Part shown: piece by piece, positions 10,978 to 54,330 of the stretch | How the letters are laid out: every line of letters begins with the position of its first letter | Numbering within the stretch: the first letter of the stretch is position 1 | Source: an uncultured Alistipes sp. | Lineage (GTDB): Bacteria; Bacteroidota; Bacteroidia; Bacteroidales; Rikenellaceae | NCBI GenBank assembly: GCA_944322005.1 | Contig: CALUNL010000004.1 | Coordinates: forward strand, 201,850-265,849 | DNA length: 64,000 nt | Direction: 5' to 3' | The notes under the pieces: model-generated | What the model was told of the DNA's origin: nothing | What the model saw: only the letters and a program-made list of their open reading frames with translations | Database searches by the model: none | Translations under genes and position numbers: made by a program

Positions 10978-13155
10978 TCAGTCATAGAATGCCCACGAAA
11001 GGCCGATCTTGAACATCCCTGGGTTGAGCGGATATTTGGCCACGGAGAAATATTCGCCGTTGCCGAACAGACCCTGGTTCAGATGCTGGTACTTTATCAA
11101 TATGCGCATGCGCTTCCACTTCGCGGAGACGAATGCGTCGATATAAGGGTAGTTTCCCACCTTGACCTCATTCTGGTTGTAGAACACGGATAGCGCAGGG
11201 TTGTAGCTCGTGGCGTAATAGCTCGTATTGAAACGCCCGTCGAGGCCTATCTGTATTCTCAAGACGTCGCGCTTGACCCAGAACTCGTAGTAGTACGACA
11301 AAAAGGCCGAAACCAGCGGCAGCGGGACAACCTCCCTGTCGGATGTGAGCTGCACGAGCACGCGGTGGTTCAGATGCAACCCCTTTATCGTAAAGTCCTT
11401 CTGCGCATAGATGCTCGTAAGGCTCACCACACCGCCGTACTGTTGCGGCAGACAGTCGGCACCGTAGTAGATCTTGTTGCGCAGGAAACTCTGCCATGCC
11501 CCGAGTTCGATTCCGTAGTCGGGCACCGAAAGCGCCACATGGAACCGCGTCTCCGCCTCCTTGCCGAAATCGTTGCTCCACCGGTAATGGTTCGACGACC
11601 AATTTTCCTGCCAATATCCCGGCGTGGTGCTCGTTTCGGAGAATGTTCCCGACAATATTATCGGTTTTTTCTTTATGTAGGCGATAAGTGCCAGGCGCGC
11701 GCCTATCGAGTAGTCGCCGCCGCGATACCCCGACGGATATATCTTGAAATCGGCACCCCAGTCGACATATTTCTTGATTTTTCCGTCCACCGAGGCATAT
11801 GCGAACCATGACGTACGGTCGGTACGGCTGTCCTCCCCTGCAAGATAGCTGCCCAGAGAGAACTGGGAATAGGTGTGGTAGTCGAGCCCGACACCGCCGT
11901 CGATGGTTCCGACCACACCGTTGCGGTCCCACGGCTGCGCCTGCACGAACAGGCGGTTGGATATCACGCGCTCGTAGGTGGAGTCGCGGGTCTCCGTCGG
12001 ATTCAGATACCAGTTCTTGTAGTAGGTGTCGGTGTGGGAGTTGTAGGTTCCGTCCTCGTTGCGCGAGTACCTCTCGTCGGTATATGTCGCATACTGGTCG
12101 GTGTATATCTTGCTCCACGAATTGTACTCGAACGTGTGGCCGATATATATCGCCGACAGCTCGGCCATGGAGAAGTCCCTTTCGGTCATCCTCTGCAACG
12201 GAATTCCTATCGACTGTTTTATGAAGAATGAGTTGTTGCGGTAGACGTTGACGGCATTCGCGCTCGCAAGCTTCATCGGTATGCCCGACGGCATCTCGAA
12301 TGTAGTGTCGGTTACGGCCCACTCGCCCACCACGCCGCCGTTCTCCTGTTGCTCAATGTGGTTGTTGATGTATCCGGCATGTACGGAGTAGCGACGTCCG
12401 GTATGGGCAAACGTACCGGCGAAATTGTGGTTCTTGACCCTGGCACGGTCGTACTTGCCGCGTGCTCCGCGCGCCTTGTAGTTGATGCTTACGGAGGTCG
12501 AAGGCGATATGTTCTGCGAAACGGTAGCCTCGAAATGCTCCTCGCGGTAGCGTTTCTGTCCCGACTCGAGATATGTCAGCCATATGTACGGATGCTTCAT
12601 GTTGTAGAACGGGACATTCTCCAGCGTATAGTTGTAGTCGTCGTACGGCTGCGAGAATGTGAACTCCTTGGAATCGGACCGGTCGAAATAGTTCACCGCA
12701 TTCGTCGCCTGGCCCAGTCCGCCGACGGAGTTGCTGCCCAGCCCCTTCACATAGTGCGGGTAGTCGATGCGCCACGAAGCGAGGGTCGTGTCTATCGACG
12801 CCATCTTTATGTCGTTGTAGTTGCGGTCGATATTCCACGAGAAGTTGCGCATCGCGCGGATGGAATCGTTGAAGAAGTACGATTCGAGAGGCTTGCGTAT
12901 GCGCGGCTTGGTCGAGTCGGCCTGTTCGCCGTTGTTCTGCTCGCCGTTCTCGCCGTTTTCACCCGTGCCGGTATCGTAAGGGTTTGTTCCGTATCCGGTA
13001 TTGTTGAGACCGTTCTGTCCCAAACCCTGCTGCTGTGCACGCTGTGCATTCATCAGCGAACGCGCATCGAGCTGTGCACGGGCAACGCCGCACACGGCCG
13101 ACAGCACCGCTGTCAGCACCACAAGGAACAATATTCGACGGAATCCCCCCAGCAT
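10978..13155 (-). CDS. Putative outer-membrane porin (Bacteroidetes putative-porin family)
   Basis: Signal peptide, Q/N/G-rich linker, alternating beta strands, C-terminal GLSWAFYD. Confidence 0.75.
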   Translation of the reverse strand: MLGGFRRILFLVVLTAVLSAVCGVARAQLDARSLMNAQRAQQQGLGQNGLNNTGYGTNPYDTGTGENGENGEQNNGEQADSTKPRIRKPLESYFFNDSIRAMRNFSWNIDRNYNDIKMASIDTTLASWRIDYPHYVKGLGSNSVGGLGQATNAVNYFDRSDSKEFTFSQPYDDYNYTLENVPFYNMKHPYIWLTYLESGQKRYREEHFEATVSQNISPSTSVSINYKARGARGKYDRARVKNHNFAGTFAHTGRRYSVHAGYINNHIEQQENGGVVGEWAVTDTTFEMPSGIPMKLASANAVNVYRNNSFFIKQSIGIPLQRMTERDFSMAELSAIYIGHTFEYNSWSKIYTDQYATYTDERYSRNEDGTYNSHTDTYYKNWYLNPTETRDSTYERVISNRLFVQAQPWDRNGVVGTIDGGVGLDYHTYSQFSLGSYLAGEDSRTDRTSWFAYASVDGKIKKYVDWGADFKIYPSGYRGGDYSIGARLALIAYIKKKPIILSGTFSETSTTPGYWQENWSSNHYRWSNDFGKEAETRFHVALSVPDYGIELGAWQSFLRNKIYYGADCLPQQYGGVVSLTSIYAQKDFTIKGLHLNHRVLVQLTSDREVVPLPLVSAFLSYYYEFWVKRDVLRIQIGLDGRFNTSYYATSYNPALSVFYNQNEVKVGNYPYIDAFVSAKWKRMRILIKYQHLNQGLFGNGEYFSVAKYPLNPGMFKIGLSWAFYD

Positions 13156-13161
13156 CTGTTT

Positions 13162-13881
13162 CTATTGCGACCTGCGCGAGCGAATCACCCACAAAACGGT
13201 CGAAACGACAACATATATAACGATGATAAGCGGTATTGCGTATATCCGGAGCCACAGCAACAGCGCCGCCGCAACAACCAGAAAGGCATAGCGCACCTCG
13301 TTCCCGCGCCAGCCGAACGACTTCATCTTGAACGAGAACATCCTTATGGGGCTTATCATAAGCACCGATGCCACCGCAACGATTGCGAATATCCACTCCT
13401 TGGCAAGCACCGTTCCGCCCGAAACGCAGCAGTAGCACAGCGAGGCGCAGAATATGGCGTCGGCCGTCGTGGTGAGACCCGCGAACTCCTCATGCTGCGA
13501 CTCGTCGATATTGAACTTGGCAAGGCGCAGGGCCGCGAATGCCGCCGAGAGCAGCAGCATGTACCGTCCGGCCTCCAGAAGCGTATCGTCGAGTCCGAAT
13601 GCGCTCGGCGACTGGCCGTACAGAACGAACATTGCGAAAGCCGGAGCCACTCCGAACGAGACCATGTCGGCCAGCGAATCGAGCTGCACGCCTATGGCCG
13701 ACGGGCATTTGAGCAGTCGCGCCGCGAAGCCGTCAAAGAAGTCAAACACGGCCGCGAGCACAATCAGTGCGGCAGCCAGGCGCAACTCCCCGTACAGCAG
13801 CGAGACAGCGATCGAGGCCGTTCCGCACATCAGGTTCGAGAGCGTCAGGAGGTTGGGTATGGTAAACAACTTTATGTTCAT
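13162..13881 (-). CDS. pssA: CDP-diacylglycerol-serine O-phosphatidyltransferase
   Basis: IPNLLTLSNL and DFFDGFAARLL...GVQLDSLADMVSFGVAP CDP-alcohol phosphotransferase signature. Confidence 0.88.
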   Translation of the reverse strand: MNIKLFTIPNLLTLSNLMCGTASIAVSLLYGELRLAAALIVLAAVFDFFDGFAARLLKCPSAIGVQLDSLADMVSFGVAPAFAMFVLYGQSPSAFGLDDTLLEAGRYMLLLSAAFAALRLAKFNIDESQHEEFAGLTTTADAIFCASLCYCCVSGGTVLAKEWIFAIVAVASVLMISPIRMFSFKMKSFGWRGNEVRYAFLVVAAALLLWLRIYAIPLIIVIYVVVSTVLWVIRSRRSQ

Positions 13882-13900
13882 TTTTACCGCTTTTAACCCG

Positions 13901-13928
13901 ACAAAGTTATAAAATATTTTTATCTTTG
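13901..13928. promoter_or_regulatory. Overlapping divergent promoters (pssA / mannose-1-phosphate guanylyltransferase)
   Basis: CAAAGTTA (TAACTTTG on minus) at 13901-13908; TATCTTTG on plus at 13921-13928. Confidence 0.65.
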
Positions 13929-13956
13929 TAAACGCGATAACAAATTAGTGACGGAA

Positions 13957-15036
13957 ATGGCCACTCACAGAAACATATACTGCGTCATAATGGCCGGCGG
14001 AGTCGGCACACGCTTCTGGCCGAAGAGCCGGCAGAACAGGCCCAAACAGTTCCTCGACATACTGGGGACCGGCAAGTCGTTCATCAGGATGACATACGAA
14101 AGATTCTCGGGAATGGTTCCCGACGACCACTTTCTCGTAGTCACCAACGCCCGCTACAAGGCATTGGTGAGGGAGCATGTGCCCGAGATAAGCGAGAGCC
14201 ACATACTCTGCGAGCCGATAGGCCGCAACACGGCCCCGTGCATCAGCTATGCCGCATACTACCTGCGCAAGATCGACCCGGAGGCGATGATGATCGTCAC
14301 GCCGTCGGACCATCTGGTGCTCGACCAGGCCGCATTCGACGAGGCGATGTCCGATGCAGTGGCATTTGCCGACCGCAACGACGCCCTGATGACGGTCGGA
14401 ATTTCGCCGAGCCGTCCCGAAACGGGCTACGGATACATACAGAAATCCGACAACAACACGATATCACGCGTAAAGTGCTTCACCGAGAAACCGAACCTCG
14501 AGCTGGCGCAAACCTTCCTGCAGTGCGGGGAGTTTTTCTGGAACTCGGGAATCTTCATCTGGAAGGTGGACGACATAATCGAGGCAATCGAGAAATACCT
14601 GCCCGAAAACGCCTCCCTGTTCGCCGCCATAGGCGACAAGTACGGCACGCCGGATGAGGCCGGAGCCATCGAGCGCGCATTCGCCGAGTGCCGCGCCATA
14701 TCCATCGACTACGGCGTCATGGAGAAGGCCGACAACGTATACGTGCGCATCAGCGACTTCGGATGGAGCGACATAGGGACCTGGGGTTCGCTCTACCAGC
14801 ACTCGCGCAAGGACAAGTACGCCAACGCCAAACCGGCCGAGAACTGCTACACGCACGAGACGCGCAGCTCCATCATATCGGTGCCGCCGGGCAAGATCGC
14901 AGTGATCAGCGGACTGCGCGACTACATCGTGGTCGACACGGAGGACGTGCTGCTCATATGCCCGCGCTCGGACGAGCAGAACATCAAGAAATACATCGAC
15001 GAGGTGAAGTACAACACCGGCGACAAACACATCTGA
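13957..15036 (+). CDS. manC: Mannose-1-phosphate guanylyltransferase
   Basis: [43 protein letters not shown] and GWSDIGTW. Confidence 0.9.
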
Positions 15037-15038
15037 CA

Positions 15039-16304
15039 ATGTCGGACATCAACGAACTGTATGGCTGTTTCGAGGAGTGTTCGTGCGTTGTCACGGACTC
15101 GCGGCGCATCGTGCCCGATTCGCTCTTCTTCGCGCTCGGCGGCGAGCGCTTCGACGGCAACCGCTTCGTTGCCGACGCCCTGCGCGGCGGGGCCAGATAT
15201 GCCGTCGCCGACTCCGACTCCCCTGCGGCGGAGAATCCCGACCTGGCCGACCGCATCATACGTGTCGGCAACTCGCTCGAAGCCCTGCAGGCTCTCGCCC
15301 GCGAGCACCGCAGGCGCCTTGCGATTCCCATAATAGGCATCGTCGGCAGCAACGGCAAGACCACCACCAAGGAGCTCACGGCAAGGGTTCTCGCCGAGAA
15401 ATTCGAGGTATATGCCACACACGGCAACCTCAACAACCATATCGGAGTTCCGCTCACGCTGCTGTCGATGACCCGCGACACGCAGTTCGGCGTCGTCGAG
15501 ATGGGGGCAAGCGCATGCGGCGAGATAGCCGCGCTGTGTGCCATATCCGAACCGAATTACGGACTGATAACCAACATAGGCCGTGCACATCTCGAAGGTT
15601 TCGGAGGTGTGGAGGGGATACGCCGCGGCAAGGGCGAACTCTTCGACTTCCTCGAGGCCAACGGCGGCCGCGCATTCGTACCGACGGAGGATGCGACGCT
15701 CGTCGCAATGGCGCGCGAGCGTGAAGACATGGCCGTCGAGTACTACTCGCGCACGATAGCCGACGGAATACCGTCGCGCATGGTCGGAGAGTACAACCGC
15801 GCCAACATGGCCGCGGCGATAGCCGTCGGAAGATATTTCGATATCGACATGGAACGCATGCGCGAGGCCGTCTCATCGTACGAGCCCGACAACAACCGCT
15901 CGCAGACCATCCGCACCGGCCGCAACACAGTGATTGCGGACTGCTACAACGCCAACCCTTCGAGCATGCAGGCGGCAATCGAGACGCTGGCGGCAAGGGA
16001 GGCAGCGCAGCGGATGCTGATACTCGGCGACATGCTCGAGCTCGGCCGGTGGTCCGGTGAGGAGCACCGTCGCATCGTCTGCCTTGCGGCAGCCGTTCCC
16101 GATGCCGAGTTGCTGCTCATAGGCCGGGAATTTTCGGCTGCGGCCGGCAGCATACCAGGCATTTCGGAGAATGCCGCCGTCCGCACCTTCCCCGACACGG
16201 ACTCGGCCGCAGAGTACCTGAAGGCGAGCCCTCCGTCAGGAGCCACCGTTCTCGTAAAGGGGTCGCGCGGCATGGCACTCGAAAGGCTGATACCGCTGCT
16301 CTGA
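15039..16304 (+). CDS. murF: UDP-MurNAc-tripeptide-D-Ala-D-Ala ligase
   Basis: [18 protein letters not shown]-loop, [33 protein letters not shown] and KGSRG. Confidence 0.93.
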
Positions 16305-16379
16305 CCGGCAGCGCCCGATTAAGCCGCAATCCGGACTGATTGCGGCCGACGGCACCGAAACACACAAAACATCCATACC

Positions 16380-18065
16380 ATGAAACGGCTACTGTCAATT
16401 GCGGCTGCGGCGACACTGCTCGTCTGCGGTCCCGTTGCGGCAAAGGAGACCCCGAAGTGGCTCTCCGACGCCGTCATCTACCACATCTACCCGTCATCCT
16501 ACATGGATTCCGACGGCGACGGAATCGGCGACCTCGAAGGCATACGCTCGAGGCTCGACTACATCCGCAGCGTCGGGTTCAACTGCATATGGCTCTCGCC
16601 ATGCTTCGTCAGTTCGTGGAAGGACGGCGGATACGACATCGTCGACTTCTACCGCGTCGACCCGCGCTTCGGGACGAACGACGACCTCGACGCCCTTGTG
16701 CGCGACGCCCACGCAAAGGGGATAAAGGTCCTTCTGGACCTTGTCGCAGGCCACACGTCGGCCGACCACCCGTGGTTCAGGGAGTCCTGCCGCGCGGAGC
16801 GCAACCGCTACAGCGACTACTACATCTGGACCGACGGCAAGCCGGAGAAGCGCCCCGGGCGCAAGTTCGTCGACAACGACTACCCGCGCAACGGCTACTA
16901 CCTGAAAAACTTCTTCGACATACAGCCGGCGCTCAACTACGGTTACCTCAATCCGAACCCGAAACACGAATGGGAGCAATCCTACGACGACGAGGGGCCG
17001 ACGGCCGTGCGCAACGAGCTGAAGAACATCATACGCTTCTGGTGCGACCGCGGGGTGGACGGATTCCGCGTCGACATGGCCTCGTCGCTCGTCAAGGGCG
17101 ACAATGCCGAGAGGGATGGCGTACGCAGGCTCTGGAGGGAGATTTTCGAGTGGTACGGCCGCGAATACCCCGAGAACATCATGCTCTCGGAGTGGTCCGA
17201 GCCGAAGCAGTCGCTCAGTGCCGGCTTCGACATCGACCTGATGATACACAACAAGGTCGGCGGGAAGATATACCGTCCGCTGGTCTGCGCGACCGACGAC
17301 AGGATGAACCCTACGGCATGCTACTTCGACAGGCGCGGGCAGGGCGAGATACGCAAACCGATGGAGATATACCGCGAGGTATACGAGGCTTCGCGCAAGA
17401 CGGGCGGCTACGCCTCCATGCCCACGTGCAGCCACGACATATGGCGTCTGAACCGCATGAACCGCAACACGCCGCAGGAGCTGAAGGTCGCCATGACGCT
17501 CTTCCTCACGCTGCCGGCTCCGCCGATCGTCTACTACGGCGAGGAGACGGGCATGCGCAACCTCGAGTACGCACCTCCGAAGGAGGGCAGCTTCTCGAGC
17601 CGCAACCGCTCCACATGCCGCACACCGATGCAGTGGGACACCACGGCGAATGCCGGATTCTCCACCGCCGACCCGTCGAAGCTCTACCTTCCGGTGGACA
17701 ACATGCCGGAGTTCCCGAACGTGGCGGAACAGGAGAACGACCCGAACTCGCTGCTCAACTACGTGCGCGGCCTCATAGCGCTGCGCGGCCGCACGCCGGC
17801 GCTCGGTGCCGACGGGGAGTGGCGGTACATCGGCGACCCCGACAACCCCTACCCGATGATATACGAGCGCAGCTCAGGCGGGGAGCGCTACGTGGTCGTC
17901 CTGAACCCGAGCGGACGCAAGGCATCCGGGACCGCGCCGAAGCTCGGCCGCAAGGCGGTATGGGTATACGGCACCGGCGCGAAGGATGCGCGATGCAGGA
18001 CCGATGCCGGGGCGCACACCTTCACCATGCAGCCCGTCAGCGCTGCCATATTCCGCATCGAATAG
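16380..18065 (+). CDS. Secreted GH13 alpha-amylase-family glycosidase
   Basis: Signal peptide; DSDGDGIGDL, GGYD, GFRVDMA (nucleophile Asp), LSEW (Glu), SHD (Asp), YYGEE and RTPMQW. Confidence 0.88.
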   Translation: MKRLLSIAAAATLLVCGPVAAKETPKWLSDAVIYHIYPSSYMDSDGDGIGDLEGIRSRLDYIRSVGFNCIWLSPCFVSSWKDGGYDIVDFYRVDPRFGTNDDLDALVRDAHAKGIKVLLDLVAGHTSADHPWFRESCRAERNRYSDYYIWTDGKPEKRPGRKFVDNDYPRNGYYLKNFFDIQPALNYGYLNPNPKHEWEQSYDDEGPTAVRNELKNIIRFWCDRGVDGFRVDMASSLVKGDNAERDGVRRLWREIFEWYGREYPENIMLSEWSEPKQSLSAGFDIDLMIHNKVGGKIYRPLVCATDDRMNPTACYFDRRGQGEIRKPMEIYREVYEASRKTGGYASMPTCSHDIWRLNRMNRNTPQELKVAMTLFLTLPAPPIVYYGEETGMRNLEYAPPKEGSFSSRNRSTCRTPMQWDTTANAGFSTADPSKLYLPVDNMPEFPNVAEQENDPNSLLNYVRGLIALRGRTPALGADGEWRYIGDPDNPYPMIYERSSGGERYVVVLNPSGRKASGTAPKLGRKAVWVYGTGAKDARCRTDAGAHTFTMQPVSAAIFRIE

Positions 18066-18076
18066 TGCGACAACGG

Positions 18077-18115
18077 AACAAGGAGAGGCGCCGATGCGCT
18101 TCTCCTTGTTTTTTT
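18077..18115 (+). terminator. Intrinsic terminator
   Basis: AACAAGGAGAGGCG-ccgatg-CGCTTCTCCTTGTT followed by a T tract. Confidence 0.75.
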
Positions 18116-18179
18116 CGCACAAATTGAGTAGTTTTGCAGATATTGATTTTTTGCACGTTTCACATTTACAGACTCTACA

Positions 18180-20120
18180 ATGAAGCAGACCAAATCGACT
18201 ACATCACTGCCCGAAAACGCCTACCGCGAACTCAAGCCGGGCGAAGAGTACAAGCCCGTGATGCCGGCACAGAGCCGTCCGGCCGAGGCTACCCCGTATT
18301 CCGTAACGATAGGCATCATCATGGCCGTGATTTTCTCCGCTGCAGCCGCATTCCTCGGGCTGAAGGTCGGACAGGTGTTCGAGGCCGCAATTCCGATAGC
18401 GATTCTCGCCGTCGGGTTCGGAAACTTCCGGCGCAAGGATAGCATGCTCGGCGAGAACGTCATAATACAGTCCATCGGGGCCTGCTCGGGCGTCATCGTC
18501 GCCGGAGCCATATTCACCCTGCCGGCACTCTACATCCTCGGACTCGAGGCCCACTTCTACCAGGTGTTCCTCTCGTCGCTGCTGGGCGGACTGCTCGGAA
18601 TCGTGCTGCTGATACCGTTCCGCAAATACTTCGTCAAGGAGATGCACGGCAAGTACCCGTTCCCGGAGGCCACCGCAACGACCGAAGTTCTCGTATCGGG
18701 CGAAAAAGGCGGCAAGCAGACCCTGATTCTCGCCATAGCGGGTGCCGTCGGCGGAATCTACGACTTCGTCGTGGCCACGTTCGGCGCATGGACCGACACC
18801 ATCTCCACCAAGATGGGGGCGCTGGGAACCGAGATAGCGTCGAGATTCAAGGTCGAACTCTCGCTCAATACCTCGGCCGCCGTACTCGGACTCGGATACA
18901 TCATCGGACTCAAGTACGCCGTCATAATCACTGCGGGCTCGTGCCTCGTGTGGTTCGTCATAATCCCGATCGCGGGATACATCATGCCCGACGCAGCTGC
19001 CGTGACCGCCAATGACCTGTATGTCAGCATCGGACGTCCGCTCGGCATCGGCGGCATCGCCATGGCGGGTCTCATCGGCATAATCCGACAGGCGGGCATC
19101 ATCCGACAGGCCGCATCGCTGGCCGTGAACGAGCTCAAGGGCAAGAAGAAGGGCGACGAGGCGGTGGAGCGCACGCAGCGCGACCTGCCGATGCGCACTA
19201 TTCTTTCGGTACTCATCGCCACGCTCGCCGCGGCATTCTGCTTCTTCCAGTTCGGCGTGCTGCACAACCTCACGCAGACCATTGTCGCGACGCTCATCGT
19301 CTTCGTCATAGCGTTCCTCTTCACCACCGTGGCAGCCAACGCCATAGCGATAGTCGGCACCAACCCGGTTTCGGGAATGACGCTGATGACGCTCATATTG
19401 AGTTCGCTCGTACTGGTGTCGATAGGCCTTACGGGCAAGGAGGGAATGACCGCCGCACTGGTAATCGGAGGTGTGGTATGTACGGCACTCTCGATGGCCG
19501 GCGGCTTCATCACCGACCTCAAAATCGGATACTGGCTCGGCAGCACCCCGCGCAAGCAGGAGGGATGGAAGTTCCTCGGAACGGTGGTTTCGGCCGCAAC
19601 CGTAGCAGGAGTGATGATGATTATGAACCAGACCTACGGCTTCGGCGAGGACAGCGTGCTCGTCGCCCCGCAGGCCAACGCCATGGCAGCCGTGATAAAG
19701 CCGCTGATGGAGGGAGGCGAAACACCGTGGATGCTCTACTTCGCGGGTGCCGTGCTCGCGCTGACGCTTACGGCAATCGGCGTTCCGGCACTGGCATTCT
19801 CGCTCGGAATGTTCATTCCGATGTCGCTCAACGCCCCGCTGGTTGTGGGCGGACTCATCGCATGGTTCGTATCCTCGCGCTCGAAGGACGAGGCTCTCAA
19901 CAAGGCGCGTTTCGACCGCGGAACGCTCATCGCATCGGGCCTTATCGCCGGCGGCGCACTCATGGGCGTGGTATCGGCAATACTCAAGTTTGCCGAGGTA
20001 GACTGGTACAATGCGGCGTGGGCAGGATCGAAGAATGCCGAATGGCTCGGTCTGGCGATGTACGTCGCAATAATCGTCTATGTCATCGTACACACGATGC
20101 GTGCGAAAAAGGAGGAATAA
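18180..20120 (+). CDS. OPT family oligopeptide transporter
   Basis: GLKVGQVFEAAIPIAIL, YPFPEATA, NPVSGMTL, DLKIGYWLG and APQANAM; about 16 hydrophobic segments. Confidence 0.9.
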   Translation: MKQTKSTTSLPENAYRELKPGEEYKPVMPAQSRPAEATPYSVTIGIIMAVIFSAAAAFLGLKVGQVFEAAIPIAILAVGFGNFRRKDSMLGENVIIQSIGACSGVIVAGAIFTLPALYILGLEAHFYQVFLSSLLGGLLGIVLLIPFRKYFVKEMHGKYPFPEATATTEVLVSGEKGGKQTLILAIAGAVGGIYDFVVATFGAWTDTISTKMGALGTEIASRFKVELSLNTSAAVLGLGYIIGLKYAVIITAGSCLVWFVIIPIAGYIMPDAAAVTANDLYVSIGRPLGIGGIAMAGLIGIIRQAGIIRQAASLAVNELKGKKKGDEAVERTQRDLPMRTILSVLIATLAAAFCFFQFGVLHNLTQTIVATLIVFVIAFLFTTVAANAIAIVGTNPVSGMTLMTLILSSLVLVSIGLTGKEGMTAALVIGGVVCTALSMAGGFITDLKIGYWLGSTPRKQEGWKFLGTVVSAATVAGVMMIMNQTYGFGEDSVLVAPQANAMAAVIKPLMEGGETPWMLYFAGAVLALTLTAIGVPALAFSLGMFIPMSLNAPLVVGGLIAWFVSSRSKDEALNKARFDRGTLIASGLIAGGALMGVVSAILKFAEVDWYNAAWAGSKNAEWLGLAMYVAIIVYVIVHTMRAKKEE

Positions 20121-20138
20121 CGGATAAAAGAGAGATAT

Positions 20139-21356
20139 ATGGAACTTAAGGAGAGATTTCTGAAATACGTCGCCGTCGACACGCAGAGTGCCGAGGAGAG
20201 CGAGACGTTCCCTTCGACGCAGAAACAGTGGACGCTACTGAACATGCTCGTCGACGAGATGAAGGCGCTCGGGCTGACCGAGGTGTCGATAGACAAATAC
20301 GGGTATGCCATGGGTACAATCCCCGCAAGCGAGGGTTGCGAAAACGCACCGGTAATAGGTTTCCTCGCACACGTCGACACGTCGCCGGACATGAGCGGCG
20401 AGAACGTGCGCCCGCGTATCATAGAGAACTACGACGGAGGGGACATCGTGCTGAACAACGCCCTGACCATGCGCGTGGAGGAGTTTCCGGAGCTGGAGAA
20501 CTTCATCGGGCACACCCTCATACATACCGACGGCACGACGCTGCTGGGAGCCGACGACAAGGCCGGCGTGGCCGAGATAATGAGTGCGGCGGAGTATCTG
20601 ATGTCGCACCCGGAGGTCAGGCACGGCAAAATCCGCATCGGCTTCACTCCCGACGAGGAGATAGGCCGCGGCGTCGACTTCTTCGACGTGAAGGCCTTCG
20701 GCGCGGATTTCGCCTACACGATGGACGGAGGCTACGAAGGCGAGCTCGAATACGAGAACTTCAACGCCGCCTCGGCCAAGATACAGATCAACGGCCGCAA
20801 CGTCCACCCGGGATACGCCAAGGGCAAGATGATAAACGCGATAGAGGTGGCCTGCGAACTCGACTCGATGATTCCGGCACAGGAGCGCCCGCAATACACC
20901 GAAGGTTACGAGGGCTTCTACCACTGTGTGGGCATCAACGGCACGGTCGAGCAGGCTAACATATCGTACATCATCCGCGACCACGACGCCGAGCGTTTCG
21001 AGCGCCGCAAGGTGTGGATGTGGAGCGTCGTCGACATGCTCAAGAAGAAGTACGGCGAGCAGGTGCTGACGCTCACGCTCAAGGACCAGTACTACAACAT
21101 GCGCAAGATGGTCGAGCCGCATCCGCAGGTCATCGACAAGGCTCTCGAGGCGATGCGCATGGCCGACGTGAAGCCGCTCGTAAGGCCCATACGCGGCGGA
21201 ACAGACGGAGCACGCCTCTCGTTCATGGGGCTGCCGTGCCCGAACATCTTTGCCGGAGGCATGAACTTCCACGGCAAATTCGAGTACTGCTCGCTCGACT
21301 CGATGGAGAAGGCGATGCGGGTTATTATCAACCTCGCTACGCTCTGGGCGAAATAG
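20139..21356 (+). CDS. pepT: Peptidase T (M20B)
   Basis: AHVDTS, LGADDKAG, FTPDEEIG, NVHPGYAKG, IRGGTDG and NFHG. Confidence 0.95.
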   Translation: MELKERFLKYVAVDTQSAEESETFPSTQKQWTLLNMLVDEMKALGLTEVSIDKYGYAMGTIPASEGCENAPVIGFLAHVDTSPDMSGENVRPRIIENYDGGDIVLNNALTMRVEEFPELENFIGHTLIHTDGTTLLGADDKAGVAEIMSAAEYLMSHPEVRHGKIRIGFTPDEEIGRGVDFFDVKAFGADFAYTMDGGYEGELEYENFNAASAKIQINGRNVHPGYAKGKMINAIEVACELDSMIPAQERPQYTEGYEGFYHCVGINGTVEQANISYIIRDHDAERFERRKVWMWSVVDMLKKKYGEQVLTLTLKDQYYNMRKMVEPHPQVIDKALEAMRMADVKPLVRPIRGGTDGARLSFMGLPCPNIFAGGMNFHGKFEYCSLDSMEKAMRVIINLATLWAK

Positions 21357-51040: not shown

Positions 51041-51871
51041 TCATGCACTAACTCCGAAATCGCGCAGGGCGTCGTTGAGCGTCGTCTTCTTGTCGGTCGA
51101 CTCCTTGCGCTTTCCTATGATAAGCGCGCAGGCGACATTGTACTCGCCAGCCGGGAAGCGTTTGGAATATGTTCCGGATATCACCACCGAACGCGGCGGG
51201 ACATATCCGCGGTACTCCACGGGTTCGCTGCCCGTGACATCGATTATGTGCGTGGAGCCGGTTATGACGACATTCGAGCCGATGACCGCCTCACGGCAGA
51301 TGCGGGCACCCTCGACGATGATGGCGCGCGAGCCTATGAAACAGTGGTCCTCGACAATCACCGGCGCAGCCTGAACCGGTTCGAGCACACCGCCTATGCC
51401 GACGCCGCCCGAAAGGTGTACGTACTTGCCAATCTGTGCGCACGAGCCCACCGTGGCCCACGTGTCGACCATCGTGCCCGTATCGACATAGGCGCCGATG
51501 TTGACGTACGACGGCATCAGCACCGCCCCCGGGGCGATGTATGCGCCATAGCGCGCCATGGCATGCGGCACGGCCCTCACGCCGAGCTTGTCGTAATCGT
51601 GTTTGAGGTCTATCTTGTCGTACCATTCCAGCTCTCCGGCACGGATGGTGCGCAGCTTCTGTATCGGGAAGTAGAGTATCACAGCCTTCTTCACCCATTC
51701 GTTCACGACCCACGCATCGTCGCCGGTCGCTTCAGCCACACGCAACTCTCCGCGGTCGAGCAGCTCAACAACGCGCCGTACGGTCTCGCGCGTTTCAGCG
51801 CCGTCGAGCAGGGAGCGCTCCTCCCAGGCGCGTTCGATCACCGCCTTCAGTTCTTCAATTTCGTTTTTCAT
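51041..51871 (-). CDS. dapD: Tetrahydrodipicolinate N-succinyltransferase
   Basis: NEWVKKAV, MPSYVNIGAYV..GTMVDTW, CAQIG and GIGGVLEP. Confidence 0.95.
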   Translation of the reverse strand: MKNEIEELKAVIERAWEERSLLDGAETRETVRRVVELLDRGELRVAEATGDDAWVVNEWVKKAVILYFPIQKLRTIRAGELEWYDKIDLKHDYDKLGVRAVPHAMARYGAYIAPGAVLMPSYVNIGAYVDTGTMVDTWATVGSCAQIGKYVHLSGGVGIGGVLEPVQAAPVIVEDHCFIGSRAIIVEGARICREAVIGSNVVITGSTHIIDVTGSEPVEYRGYVPPRSVVISGTYSKRFPAGEYNVACALIIGKRKESTDKKTTLNDALRDFGVSA

Positions 51872-51921
51872 AAGTCATCCAGTTGTTTTGCCTGCACACT
51901 GCAGGCACCAATATAAACATA

Positions 51922-52090
51922 CAAATATAGTGAAAGGCGAGCGCAGAGACAAATGAAAACGGAAGTTTTCAATATTTGCCTGTGCCGAACCGCATCCTAT
52001 ATTATCCAAATATAGCGAAACGCGAGTGCAGAGACAAACGAAAACGGAAGTTCTGTTGTCCGATTATGTCGGAACACACCCAATATTATC
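51922..52090. repeat. Two tandem ~85-nt units, each carrying a minus-strand TTTG-N20-TATATTTG promoter
   Basis: Units 51922-52006 and 52007-52090; first 46 nt differ at 4 positions; both end TATTATC. Confidence 0.88.
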
Positions 52091-52167
52091 CGAACATCGA
52101 CGGGAAAAGCGGCGCATACATCCCGAAAAATTCCTAAATTTGCACGGTCTAACAACAAACACGAACG

Positions 52168-54330
52168 ATGAAAACCGTTGCATGCAAAAGAGCGACAATC
52201 ATGGTTGCGGTTGTCGCAGTCTGCTTCCTAATTGGCTACGGCATAGGAAAACTCATAAAAAACATGGATAACAGAATCGAATACCCGGCGACAGAGCGTG
52301 AAAATGTCGTCGACAACTATTTCGGCACCGAGGTGGCCGACCCTTACCGCTGGCTCGAGGACGACAACTCGGAGCGTACGGCCGCTTGGGTCAAGGCCCA
52401 GAACGAGGTGACGTTCGACTACCTGTCGAAGATCCCGTTCCGCGACGCCATCAGGGAACGCCTGACCGAGTTGTGGGACTACCCGAAGGAGAGTGCCCCG
52501 TCGAAGAAGGGCGACTGGTACTATTTCTTTCGGAACGACGGCCTGCAGAACCAGAGCGTGATATACCGCAAGCGCTCGCTCGAGAGCGACGAGTGCGAGG
52601 TCTTCTTCGACCCGAATACACTGTCGGACGACGGCACGGTGGCTCTCGCCTCGGCTGCATTCTCGAAAGACGGCAAATACCTCGCATACGCCACCGCGGC
52701 ATCCGGTTCAGACTGGATCGAGATCCGTGTGATGGAGACCGAGACCCGGCGCGTGCTCGACGACTGCATCAAGTGGGTGAAGGTCTCCGGAGCGACATGG
52801 GCACCGGACAACGTGGGCTTCTATTACAGCGCATACGACGCCCCGAAGGATGGCGTATACTCTTCGAAAAACGAATACCAGAAGGTATATTACCACCGCG
52901 TAGGCACCCCGCAGAGTGCCGACCGCCTCGTATATTCCGACCCGGAGCACCCGCTGCGATACTTCTACGCATGGCAGAGCGACGACAGCCGATGGGTATT
53001 CGTATCGTCGTCGGAGGGCACGTCGGGCAGCGAAATCCTTTACAAACGCAGCAACGCCCGCAAGTTCGACGTCCTGCTCAAGGGCTTCGACTACGACTAC
53101 GGCATCATCGAGTGCGAGGATGACCAGCTCTACGTGATGACCAACGAAGGTGCGGAGAACTACCACCTCATAAGGATAGACCTCAACGACCCGTCGAAAC
53201 GCGAGGTGGTGATACCGGAGAGGGAGAACCTGCTCGAGGGTGTCGGCTCGGTCGGAGGATGCCTCACGGCAATATACCTCGAGGATGCACAGAACAAGGT
53301 CTACCAGTACGGTATGGACGGTACGCTCATACGCGAGGTCGAGTTGCCGGGCATAGGCACCGTAAGCGGCTTCGGCGGCGAGAAGGAGGATACGGAAGTA
53401 TACTACTCCATTTCGACGTTCACCTCCCCGACTGCGATCTACTCGTTCGACATCAAGAGCGGCAAGTCGGAACTCTATCTGCGTCCGGAGGTGAAGTTCA
53501 ATCCGGACGACTTCACCACCGAACAGATATTCTTCACGAGCAAGGACGGCACGCGCGTACCGATGTTCGTGTCATACAAGAAGGGGCTGAAGCTCAACGG
53601 CAAGAACCCGTGCTACCTATACGGTTACGGAGGCTTCCAGATAAACCTCACTCCATCGTTCAACCCGGCATCGATAATGTTCATGGAGCAGGGCGGAGTC
53701 TATGTCTTCGTGACGCTGCGCGGAGGCCTCGAATACGGCGAGAGCTGGCATAAGGCCGGCATGCTCGAGAACAAGCAGAACGTATTCGACGACTTCATCG
53801 CCGCGGCCGAGTACCTCATCGACAACGGCTACACCTCGTCGAAGAAGCTGGCCATAGCCGGCGGCTCGAACGGAGGCCTGCTCGTCGGAGCCTGCGAGGT
53901 GCAGCGGCCCGACCTGTATGCCGTATGCCTTCCGGCAGTCGGCGTGATGGACATGCTCCGCTACCACAAGTTCACGATCGGCTGGGGCTGGGTCGTAGAG
54001 TACGGCTCGAGCGACAACGAGGAGCAGTTCGAATACATATACAAATACTCCCCGTTGCACAACATCAGGGAGGGTGTGAAATATCCGGCCACGCTCGTCA
54101 CGACAGCCGACCACGACGACCGCGTCGTCCCAGCTCACTCGTTCAAGTTCGCCGCCACGATGCAGCACGCACAGGCAGGCGACGCGCCGATACTCATACG
54201 CATAGAGTCAAAGGCCGGACACGGAGCCGGCAAACCGACATCCAAGCGCATCGACGAGGCTGCCGACACCTATGCATTCCTCTTTGCGAACACGGGCACC
54301 AAATACCGCAAAATCGAAAACAGCAAATAA
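52168..54330 (+). CDS. Prolyl oligopeptidase (S9A)
   Basis: DPYRWLED, LRGGxEYG, GGSNGG (Ser), HDDRV (Asp) and AGHG (His); TAAATTTG promoter at 52135-52142; start uncertain. Confidence 0.93.

Follow-up and report, generated by a model that had tools for sequence, protein, structure and literature searches.

The two repeat units upstream of dapD in this uncultured Alistipes genome belong to a family of palindromic repeats that stacks and changes in number; the family probably spreads, supplying and reshuffling promoters, and its gene-proximal unit here probably drives dapD. The window, by which we mean the whole stretch of 64,000 nucleotides that was analysed, lies on contig C4 of a 1.84 Mb genome with 56% G+C, and the nearest dapD proteins are those of uncultured Alistipes, with a best amino-acid identity of 80%.

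The dapD stretch contains two head-to-tail copies of a 70-85-bp palindromic family that is patchily distributed in Alistipes and other Bacteroidales. Each unit is a long imperfect hairpin; its 3′ half has the form of a complete Bacteroidota primary-sigma promoter (-33 TTTG, 20-nt spacer, -7 TAnnTTTG), which its 5′ half repeats imperfectly in inverted orientation. In the mechanism that we propose, unit 1, occupying the position of an ancestral short promoter, would supply the current dapD promoter, with transcription predicted to begin near 51915-51917 and to give a leader of about 45 nt; unit 2 would be an older or decaying copy, the intact promoter half of which may add a second, longer transcript. 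The family would reach the promoters of unrelated genes, with a box directly before each unit and a new box at the unit end; it stacks head to tail, and its units are gained or lost quickly.

A repeat search of the window found two 49-nt copies, 51919-51967 and 52004-52052, that are 90% identical and spaced by 85 nt, and a further repeat block of 31 nt at 51983-52013 and 52067-52097 with 74% identity; Tandem Repeats Finder, run on the same window, did not list the repeat. The features of the array and its surroundings are as follows.

51041-51871, minus strand: dapD, tetrahydrodipicolinate N-succinyltransferase, the gene at which the array aims (NCBIfam NF008808, 348 bits, cut-off 204).
51889-51907, minus strand: perfect 8-bp hairpin TGCCTGCA-GTG-TGCAGGCA in the predicted dapD 5′ leader, read from the sequence and outside the repeat unit.
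51922-52006, minus strand: unit 1, the copy nearest the gene, palindromic and of the full 85 nt (nhmmer E 1.8e-22), with the promoter repeat reading GATAATATAGGATGCGGTTCGGCACAGGCAAATATTGAAAACTTCCGTTTTCATTTGTCTCTGCGCTCGCCTTTCACTATATTTG on this strand.
51922-51929, minus strand: unit 1 -7 box TATATTTG, the probable dapD promoter, predicted from the invariant columns and the consensus of PMC7366714.
51950-51953, minus strand: unit 1 -33 box TTTG, 20 nt upstream of the -7 box and within the 3′ arm of the hairpin, its partner being the CAAA at 51973-51976.
51954-51971, no strand assigned: unit 1 inner stem-loop TGAAAAC-GGAA-GTTTTCA.
51997-52003, minus strand: unit 1 distal arm AATATAG (plus strand CTATATT), which pairs with the CTATATT of its own -7 box region.
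52007-52090, minus strand: unit 2, distal, with an intact promoter half 90% identical to that of unit 1 (nhmmer E 2.8e-16).
52007-52014, minus strand: unit 2 -7 box TATATTTG, intact.
52035-52038, minus strand: unit 2 -33 box TTTG.
52091-52099, minus strand: putative decayed box-like remnant CGATGTTCG at the distal array edge ('box 0'), proposed from parallel arrays.
52135-52142, plus strand: separate -7 box TAAATTTG of the divergent S9 peptidase gene (52168-54330), outside the repeat.

On the plus strand the boxes read CAAATATA at 51922-51929 and at 52007-52014, with CAAA exactly 20 nt on in both units, and the box end of unit 1 (51922) lies 50 nt from the dapD ATG. An earlier reading of the DNA, made from the sequence only, had described an 85-nt tandem repeat with TTTG-N20-TATATTTG on the minus strand of both units, about 50 nt from dapD, and had noted that the four differences between the units in their first 46 nt all fall outside the boxes; both descriptions are accurate. 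Its account of unit 1 as a long hairpin and of unit 2 as degraded in its second half is borne out by folding against dinucleotide shuffles. Unit 1 reaches -25.7 kcal/mol with a z of -3.5 when the promoter strand is folded, and the plus strand of the window gives -26.8 kcal/mol with a z of -5.3; unit 2, with a z of about 0, folds no better than its shuffles, which indicates that its distal half is degraded. The small hairpin at 51889-51907 sits between the unit-1 box and the dapD start codon, and the leaders of related dapD genes look different.

The consensus of the Bacteroides primary sigma factor, sigma-ABfr, consists of a -33 TTTG and a -7 TAnnTTTG (PMC7366714), and both elements are present at 20-nt spacing in both dapD units. 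Shuffles of the 64-kb window give an expectation of 0.08 for the pattern TTTG-N19-21-TAnnTTTG, which the window contains seven times; the dapD units make up two of these occurrences. Genome-wide, TAnnTTTG lies 0-60 nt upstream of predicted gene starts 241 times in the sense and 88 times in the antisense direction, an enrichment which indicates that the Bacteroides consensus applies in the source organism and that the unit boxes lie at normal distances. In an alignment of 19 units, the only columns without variation are those of the -33 TTTG, the greater part of the -7 box and a few positions beside them; the same columns (-33 TTTG, -7 TA.nT.TG) are invariant in 36 units from seven genomes and in 48 long-form units taken from over a dozen genomes.

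The state of the boxes depends on their position in an array. Intact boxes are found in 67 of 69 gene-proximal units as against 19 of 31 internal units, meaning those that stand before another unit (Fisher p 8e-6), and in the complete Alistipes genome G043 the internal junctions carry the crippled box CACACTTTG, with TATCTTTG present only in the last unit before the gene. The retention of proximal boxes and loss of internal ones is the pattern expected under selection for promoter function at the proximal position, and we infer from these sequence comparisons that the gene-proximal units act as working promoters. They share both boxes, the spacing and the position relative to start codons with ordinary sigma-ABfr promoters, which, however, have no 85-nt hairpin and are not 85-97% identical between unrelated genes.

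Within the source genome, BLAST and iterated nhmmer searches located 19 units at 14 loci, five of which are tandem pairs, and a degenerate 20th copy adjoins C4:75334. A survey of copy number and orientation by BLAST had been proposed in the sequence-only reading, and every one of the 14 loci proved to be aimed at a gene start: the TAnnTTTG end lies about 5-80 nt before the ATG of an ORF at 14/14. At all six loci between co-directional genes the aim is at the downstream gene, the unit in divergent contexts (about seven loci) always stands beside the gene at which it aims, and none of the 14 loci is convergent. The targets include ackA, a DUF4491 membrane protein gene, lnt, a YfcE-like phosphoesterase, a transporter, ndk, a thioredoxin-like lipoprotein, dapD, lspA and a radical SAM protein, among others, and the family accounts for about 15% of all full -33/-7 patterns in the genome. 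The orientation rule extends to 12/12 loci in G021 and to 20 loci in G043 and G189, giving about 46 loci read overall. Most targets in these three genomes differ from those of the source genome (recG, mutS, rny, nadC, ybaK, rpiB, proC, engB, thiL), and in G543 a unit is directed at a tRNA-Gly gene. Some targets do recur in distant lineages, namely lnt (source genome and G189), DUF4491 (source genome and G043) and engB (G043, G479 and G603), so that part of the distribution may be old and vertical rather than the product of recent spread.

Sequence-only covariance models of the family, applied at a threshold of E <= 1e-5, gave matches in 131 of 376 Alistipes genomes, in line with the similar intergenic repeats that the sequence-only reading had ascribed to this genus. 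Six Alistipes genomes that were counted fully hold 14-66 units each, and unit lengths range from 68 to 85 nt. Across the order, the family is carried by 17 of 301 sampled Bacteroidales genomes, in 12 of 209 genera (11 besides Alistipes). Units from other genera score as high as those of the source genome itself and are about 85% identical across families; ndk DNA within Alistipes is at most 74% identical to that of the source genome in the collection searched.

Two further sequences also carry units. OY726013.1, a 46-kb circular sequence with 57% G+C that is filed as a Phocaeicola massiliensis plasmid, contains at 12436-20515 (L215) one unit 82% identical to unit 1, together with primase-like and Abi-like ORFs, as judged by their first residues only; this may be a mobile element that could pass units from one lineage to another, unless the contig was mis-assigned. 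Carriage by phages was considered but found no support: nine matches labelled 'Bacteriophage sp.' are unverified faecal scaffolds, and the one that was inspected (L214) carries bacterial genes. This human faecal sequence, MT835991.1, encodes look-alikes of nadB, rubrerythrin, dapB, lepB and purD, going by N-terminal sequences, with three units before dapB, and looks like a Bacteroidales chromosome fragment rather than a phage.

The hairpin is kept by compensatory changes. A structure set by hand from the best-folding copy was counted on 48 long-form units: over 31 pairs, 90.2% are paired as against 86.4 +/- 0.3% with shuffled partners (a value of 90.2% was reached in 0 of 500 shuffles), changes on both sides occur at ten pairs (1/500 shuffles), and the covariation score is 0.141 against 0.079. 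Sliding the partners by 1-3 columns brings pairing down to 40-48%. The distal arm and the -7 box form one compensatory set, AATATAG going with TATATTTG and AAGATAG with TATCTTTG (22 T-A, 20 G-C); a triplet in the -33/-7 spacer and the left flank form another (GGT/ACC, GGC/GCC, GCC/GGC), and the inner stem shows a change from A-T to G-C. Other subfamilies have GGAAAC/GTTTCC, GGGAAC/GTTCCC or TGCAAAC/GTTTGCA as their inner stem, and those with a swapped inner stem-loop are still palindromic, the 3′ arm holding a -33 TTTG paired with CAAA. At L194 the arm matches the box that ends its own unit and not the preceding box, which indicates that the unit runs from arm to box. The terminal inverted repeats expected of a MITE are present as the covarying AATATAG/CTATATT arms, which measure only 7-9 bp in a unit that is palindromic throughout. 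RNAalifold predicted no structure on an alignment of mixed subfamilies, a result that we attribute to the misalignment by MAFFT of arms of different lengths.

Covariation of this kind supports base pairing, and would suit an RNA element, whether a structured leader or attenuator transcribed from a distal promoter or by read-through, or a small or antisense RNA; a transcript starting from unit 2 would include unit 1 and its fold of -25.7 kcal/mol. We nevertheless consider such an element unlikely, though less so for arrays like that of dapD than for single units, which it does not explain. Single units lie upstream of their own promoter and so outside its transcript, the internal boxes of arrays are crippled in G043, and the best-conserved columns are the promoter boxes rather than the stems. 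Mismatches number 42 G-T and 46 A-C, so that wobble counts reveal no strand bias and favour neither strand as the one that folds. A terminator was also considered and discarded, as the dapD array has no terminator-like site or tail, and an Rfam scan of 51500-52500 up to E = 10 returned no match, the lysine riboswitch included.

Operators classically lie over the -33 region, and the inverted repeat does overlap the -33 box; its outer stem (GGCA...TGCC) is well conserved, and a palindrome bound by a global dimeric regulator or a nucleoid protein could owe its likeness between genes to selection instead of spread, and the occurrence of units at lnt, DUF4491 and engB in distant lineages would fit. 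This interpretation too is improbable, since pairing is kept within one genome although the stem may read GAAAAC/GTTTTC, GGAAAC/GTTTCC or TGCAAAC/GTTTGCA and units run from 68 to 85 nt, the targets have no common function, and no constraint on an operator would account for 85% identity across families over a length of about 80 nt. Orthologous dapD promoters, moreover, have no unit, and units form arrays of changing number.

Our preferred reading, of a promoter-carrying family that spreads and stacks, draws further on the comparison of related loci. None of the 34 related dapD loci examined has a unit, and where the divergent peptidase gene is kept, the dapD/peptidase spacer is roughly 95-130 nt with boxes of its own, compared with 296 nt in the source genome; on these sequences the array looks like a gain in the lineage of the source genome. 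The leader that follows the unit-1 box (TATGATATTG...) resembles the one that follows the native box in L056 (TATGTTTATATTGG...), a likeness which suggests that the unit-1 box stands in the place of the native one. We sought a pair of filled and empty sites among the relatives of the source genome and in the genome pairs G479/G603 and G480/G604, and found no clean pair; the orthologous site in the comparison of G479 with G603 holds an old degenerate unit and is not empty. Arrays are usually bounded by a box at both ends, the distal box often being decayed; the repeated box could be either a duplicated target or part of the unit.

Units of different subfamilies are found head to tail in mixed arrays at L135, L136, L138, L194, L202, L203 and L204, and the junctions of these arrays are alike, each consisting of a box, a short linker and an arm. 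Such stacking suggests that new units are added beside a box, slippage alone being insufficient to explain it. There is slippage or unequal exchange as well. The genomes G480 and G604, which are 92% identical at the one shared locus compared for identity, differ in unit number at 4/7 comparable loci: the counts are three (near-identical) to one, at least three to one and one to two, and the fourth locus has an additional inverted unit in one of the genomes. The distribution of the family suggests that it has been dispersed. The flanks of two arrays in G480 (L224 and L229) are split in G604 over contigs C218/C1 and C167/C194, and the repeats therefore seem to break short-read assemblies at promoters.

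At L225 in G480 the unit is fully symmetric, both arms carrying a complete promoter half (CAAAGATA ... TATATTTG), and it lies between divergent genes; its counterpart in G604, L234, has an extra inverted unit. The symmetry of L225 suggests that in ordinary units the 5′ half began as a mirror image of the promoter half and has since decayed, and the family may derive from a two-way palindromic promoter. A duplication is seen at L209 in G543, where a unit precedes a tRNA-Gly(GCC) gene and 29 nt comprising the box, the leader and the first tRNA bases (TATCTTTGCATCG[T/C]AAATGCGAAAATAG) stand on both sides of the unit core. The template may have been switched twice, once at the box and once at the AAAATAG with which the tRNA by chance begins. 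L210 has a similar but shorter duplicate, in which CAGAAGATAA follows both boxes.

As to how units insert, we infer that single-stranded hairpin DNA and the -7 box take part. Only tentatively, and with the balance of probability against it, do we go further and propose a self-targeting mobile element of gut Bacteroidales that recognizes promoters and restores them, and that is moved by host or other machinery. On single-stranded DNA, the 5′ arm AAKATAG would pair with the -7 box CTATMTT, and insertion would take place right after the box; the new box at the unit end would then preserve expression and at the same time create a fresh target. Such homing, if true, would account for mixed stacking, for the finding of n units with n+1 boxes, for the orientation rule and for spread between families though no transposase can be recognized, and it would make symmetric units such as that of L225 two-way promoters.

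More conventional machinery, a RAYT (Y1) transposase moving a REP/REPIN-type element or a PATE-like derivative of IS200/IS605, has in its favour a multicopy hairpin repeat, a strict orientation and adjacency to a fixed short sequence. The last two are also properties of IS200/IS605 target sites. We think it quite improbable here: PF01797 is absent from the source genome and from 15 of the 16 element-rich genomes, the remaining one having a match, and the control genomes were matched. The sequence-only reading had suggested seeking a linked transposase, and the family goes with none of the Y1/RAYT type. The units stand at the 5′ and not the 3′ ends of genes, and their sequence has no GTAG/CGTC end tags. 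Iterated nhmmer in the source genome recovered short units only, and ends of 7-9 bp are too short for an autonomous-partner search. Of the REP/MITE-like portable promoter that had been postulated, the dispersed portable promoter-type element survives, being multicopy, oriented towards gene starts and order-wide, and the attribution to REP falls with the lack of a Y1/RAYT gene and the position at 5′ ends. An inverton was set aside as improbable on a reading of the sequence; with arms of 7-9 bp and a palindromic interior, inversion would change little.

A control region for dapD that responds to lysine, as a riboswitch or an attenuator, is very improbable. One unit adjoins lysA (C2:94811) and units stand before dapB in the faecal contig L214, but the unit at the lysA locus aims at lnt, in the direction opposite to lysA, the array region matches neither the lysine riboswitch nor any other Rfam family, and nearly all other copies precede unrelated genes. 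The tuning of lysine biosynthesis envisaged in the sequence-only reading finds no support, given targets such as ackA, ndk, lspA, lnt, mutS, recG, rny, engB and a tRNA, and the 34 dapD loci that have no unit. A tandem duplication confined to the dapD promoter would explain two adjacent units with promoter halves 90% identical, but can be dismissed in view of 19-20 copies at 14 loci in the source genome and of the matches in 131 Alistipes genomes and 11 other genera. Occurrence at this site alone, which the sequence-only reading had named as grounds for refuting it, is thereby ruled out.

Among described systems, the closest concept is that of the putative mobile promoters (PMPs), which in the summary given in PMC3575422 are sequences that precede non-homologous genes of one genome and are alike over 50 nt or more, with an identity of 80% or higher (Matus-Garcia, Nijveen & van Passel 2012). 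Some are common to several genera or families, and their mode of movement is there given as unknown. The same source names Correia, ERIC and REPIN alongside PMPs as promoter-bearing repeats. The copies in the source genome are of this description, with 86-98% identity between loci over 46-85 nt and unrelated downstream proteins. PMPs as summarized are nevertheless an operational class, consisting mostly of pairs and defined on the region from -150 to -50 without the -10 box, whereas the present repeats form a family with a fixed anatomy, in which the whole unit is a hairpin with Bacteroidota -33 and -7 boxes, both ends are marked by a box, units stack head to tail and a genome carries dozens of copies.

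The Correia elements of Neisseria (CREE/NEMIS) are, in the part of PMC3575422 that cites Siddique et al. 2011, small palindromic non-autonomous multicopy repeats with outward promoters that alter the expression of neighbours. The present family is likewise small, palindromic, multicopy and promoter-carrying, a likeness in function only. Correia elements have terminal inverted repeats of about 26 bp, a TA target duplication, sigma-70-type promoters and an IHF site, and they occur in either orientation and are not known to form head-to-tail arrays. Our family, in contrast, has an absolute orientation in about 46 loci, common arrays and a flanking duplicate that is the 8-nt -7 box, and direct reading of the sequences shows that the unit ends differ. 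REP, BIME and REPIN elements are, like our family, hairpin repeats that lie outside genes, often in clusters, and whose stems are maintained by compensatory changes; our family differs in its 70-85-nt units (REP 20-40 nt), its position at promoters instead of after stop codons and its complete promoter, and no Y1/RAYT gene goes with it.

The closest precedent from within the Bacteroidales is BrickBuilt, a MITE of Porphyromonas gingivalis, an intergenic repeat that contains sub-repeats in tandem and for which experiments have demonstrated promoter activity (PMC4596501). It is built of 23-nt minisatellite units with a leader and a tail, is species-specific, lies 49-591 nt from genes and transcribes both ways (PMC4596501), and we saw no likeness to our family in either sequence or architecture. 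Our literature search found no published description of the family, which might nevertheless be contained, unnamed, in a large automatic catalogue of Bacteroidota MITEs (PMC11602168). It would work like a promoter-bearing MITE, its promoter activity being predicted from sequence, and it is set apart by Bacteroidota boxes in a hairpin, box-to-box stacking, an absolute orientation rule and the lack of a recognizable transposase.

Should the proximal unit prove to be the working promoter, one family would have furnished a considerable part of the housekeeping promoters in many gut Bacteroidales. Changes in unit number between close relatives would then be a built-in source of expression variation and of promoter replacement, and the family would offer compact, naturally portable promoter cassettes for the engineering of Bacteroidales. 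It also poses a mechanistic question, namely how a hairpin repeat that has no linked transposase reaches the exact spot behind a -7 box in a single orientation. In annotation, the repeats would mark likely transcription starts and would explain contig breaks at promoters in metagenomes.

The arrays of G043 (L179-L192) have an additional peculiarity. An extra G+C-rich stem-loop, GCGGAGG-ACAAG-CCTCCGC, lies between the crippled internal box and the arm. Several of the ORFs downstream of these arrays begin only 4-8 nt past the box, which would mean leaderless or near-leaderless mRNAs.
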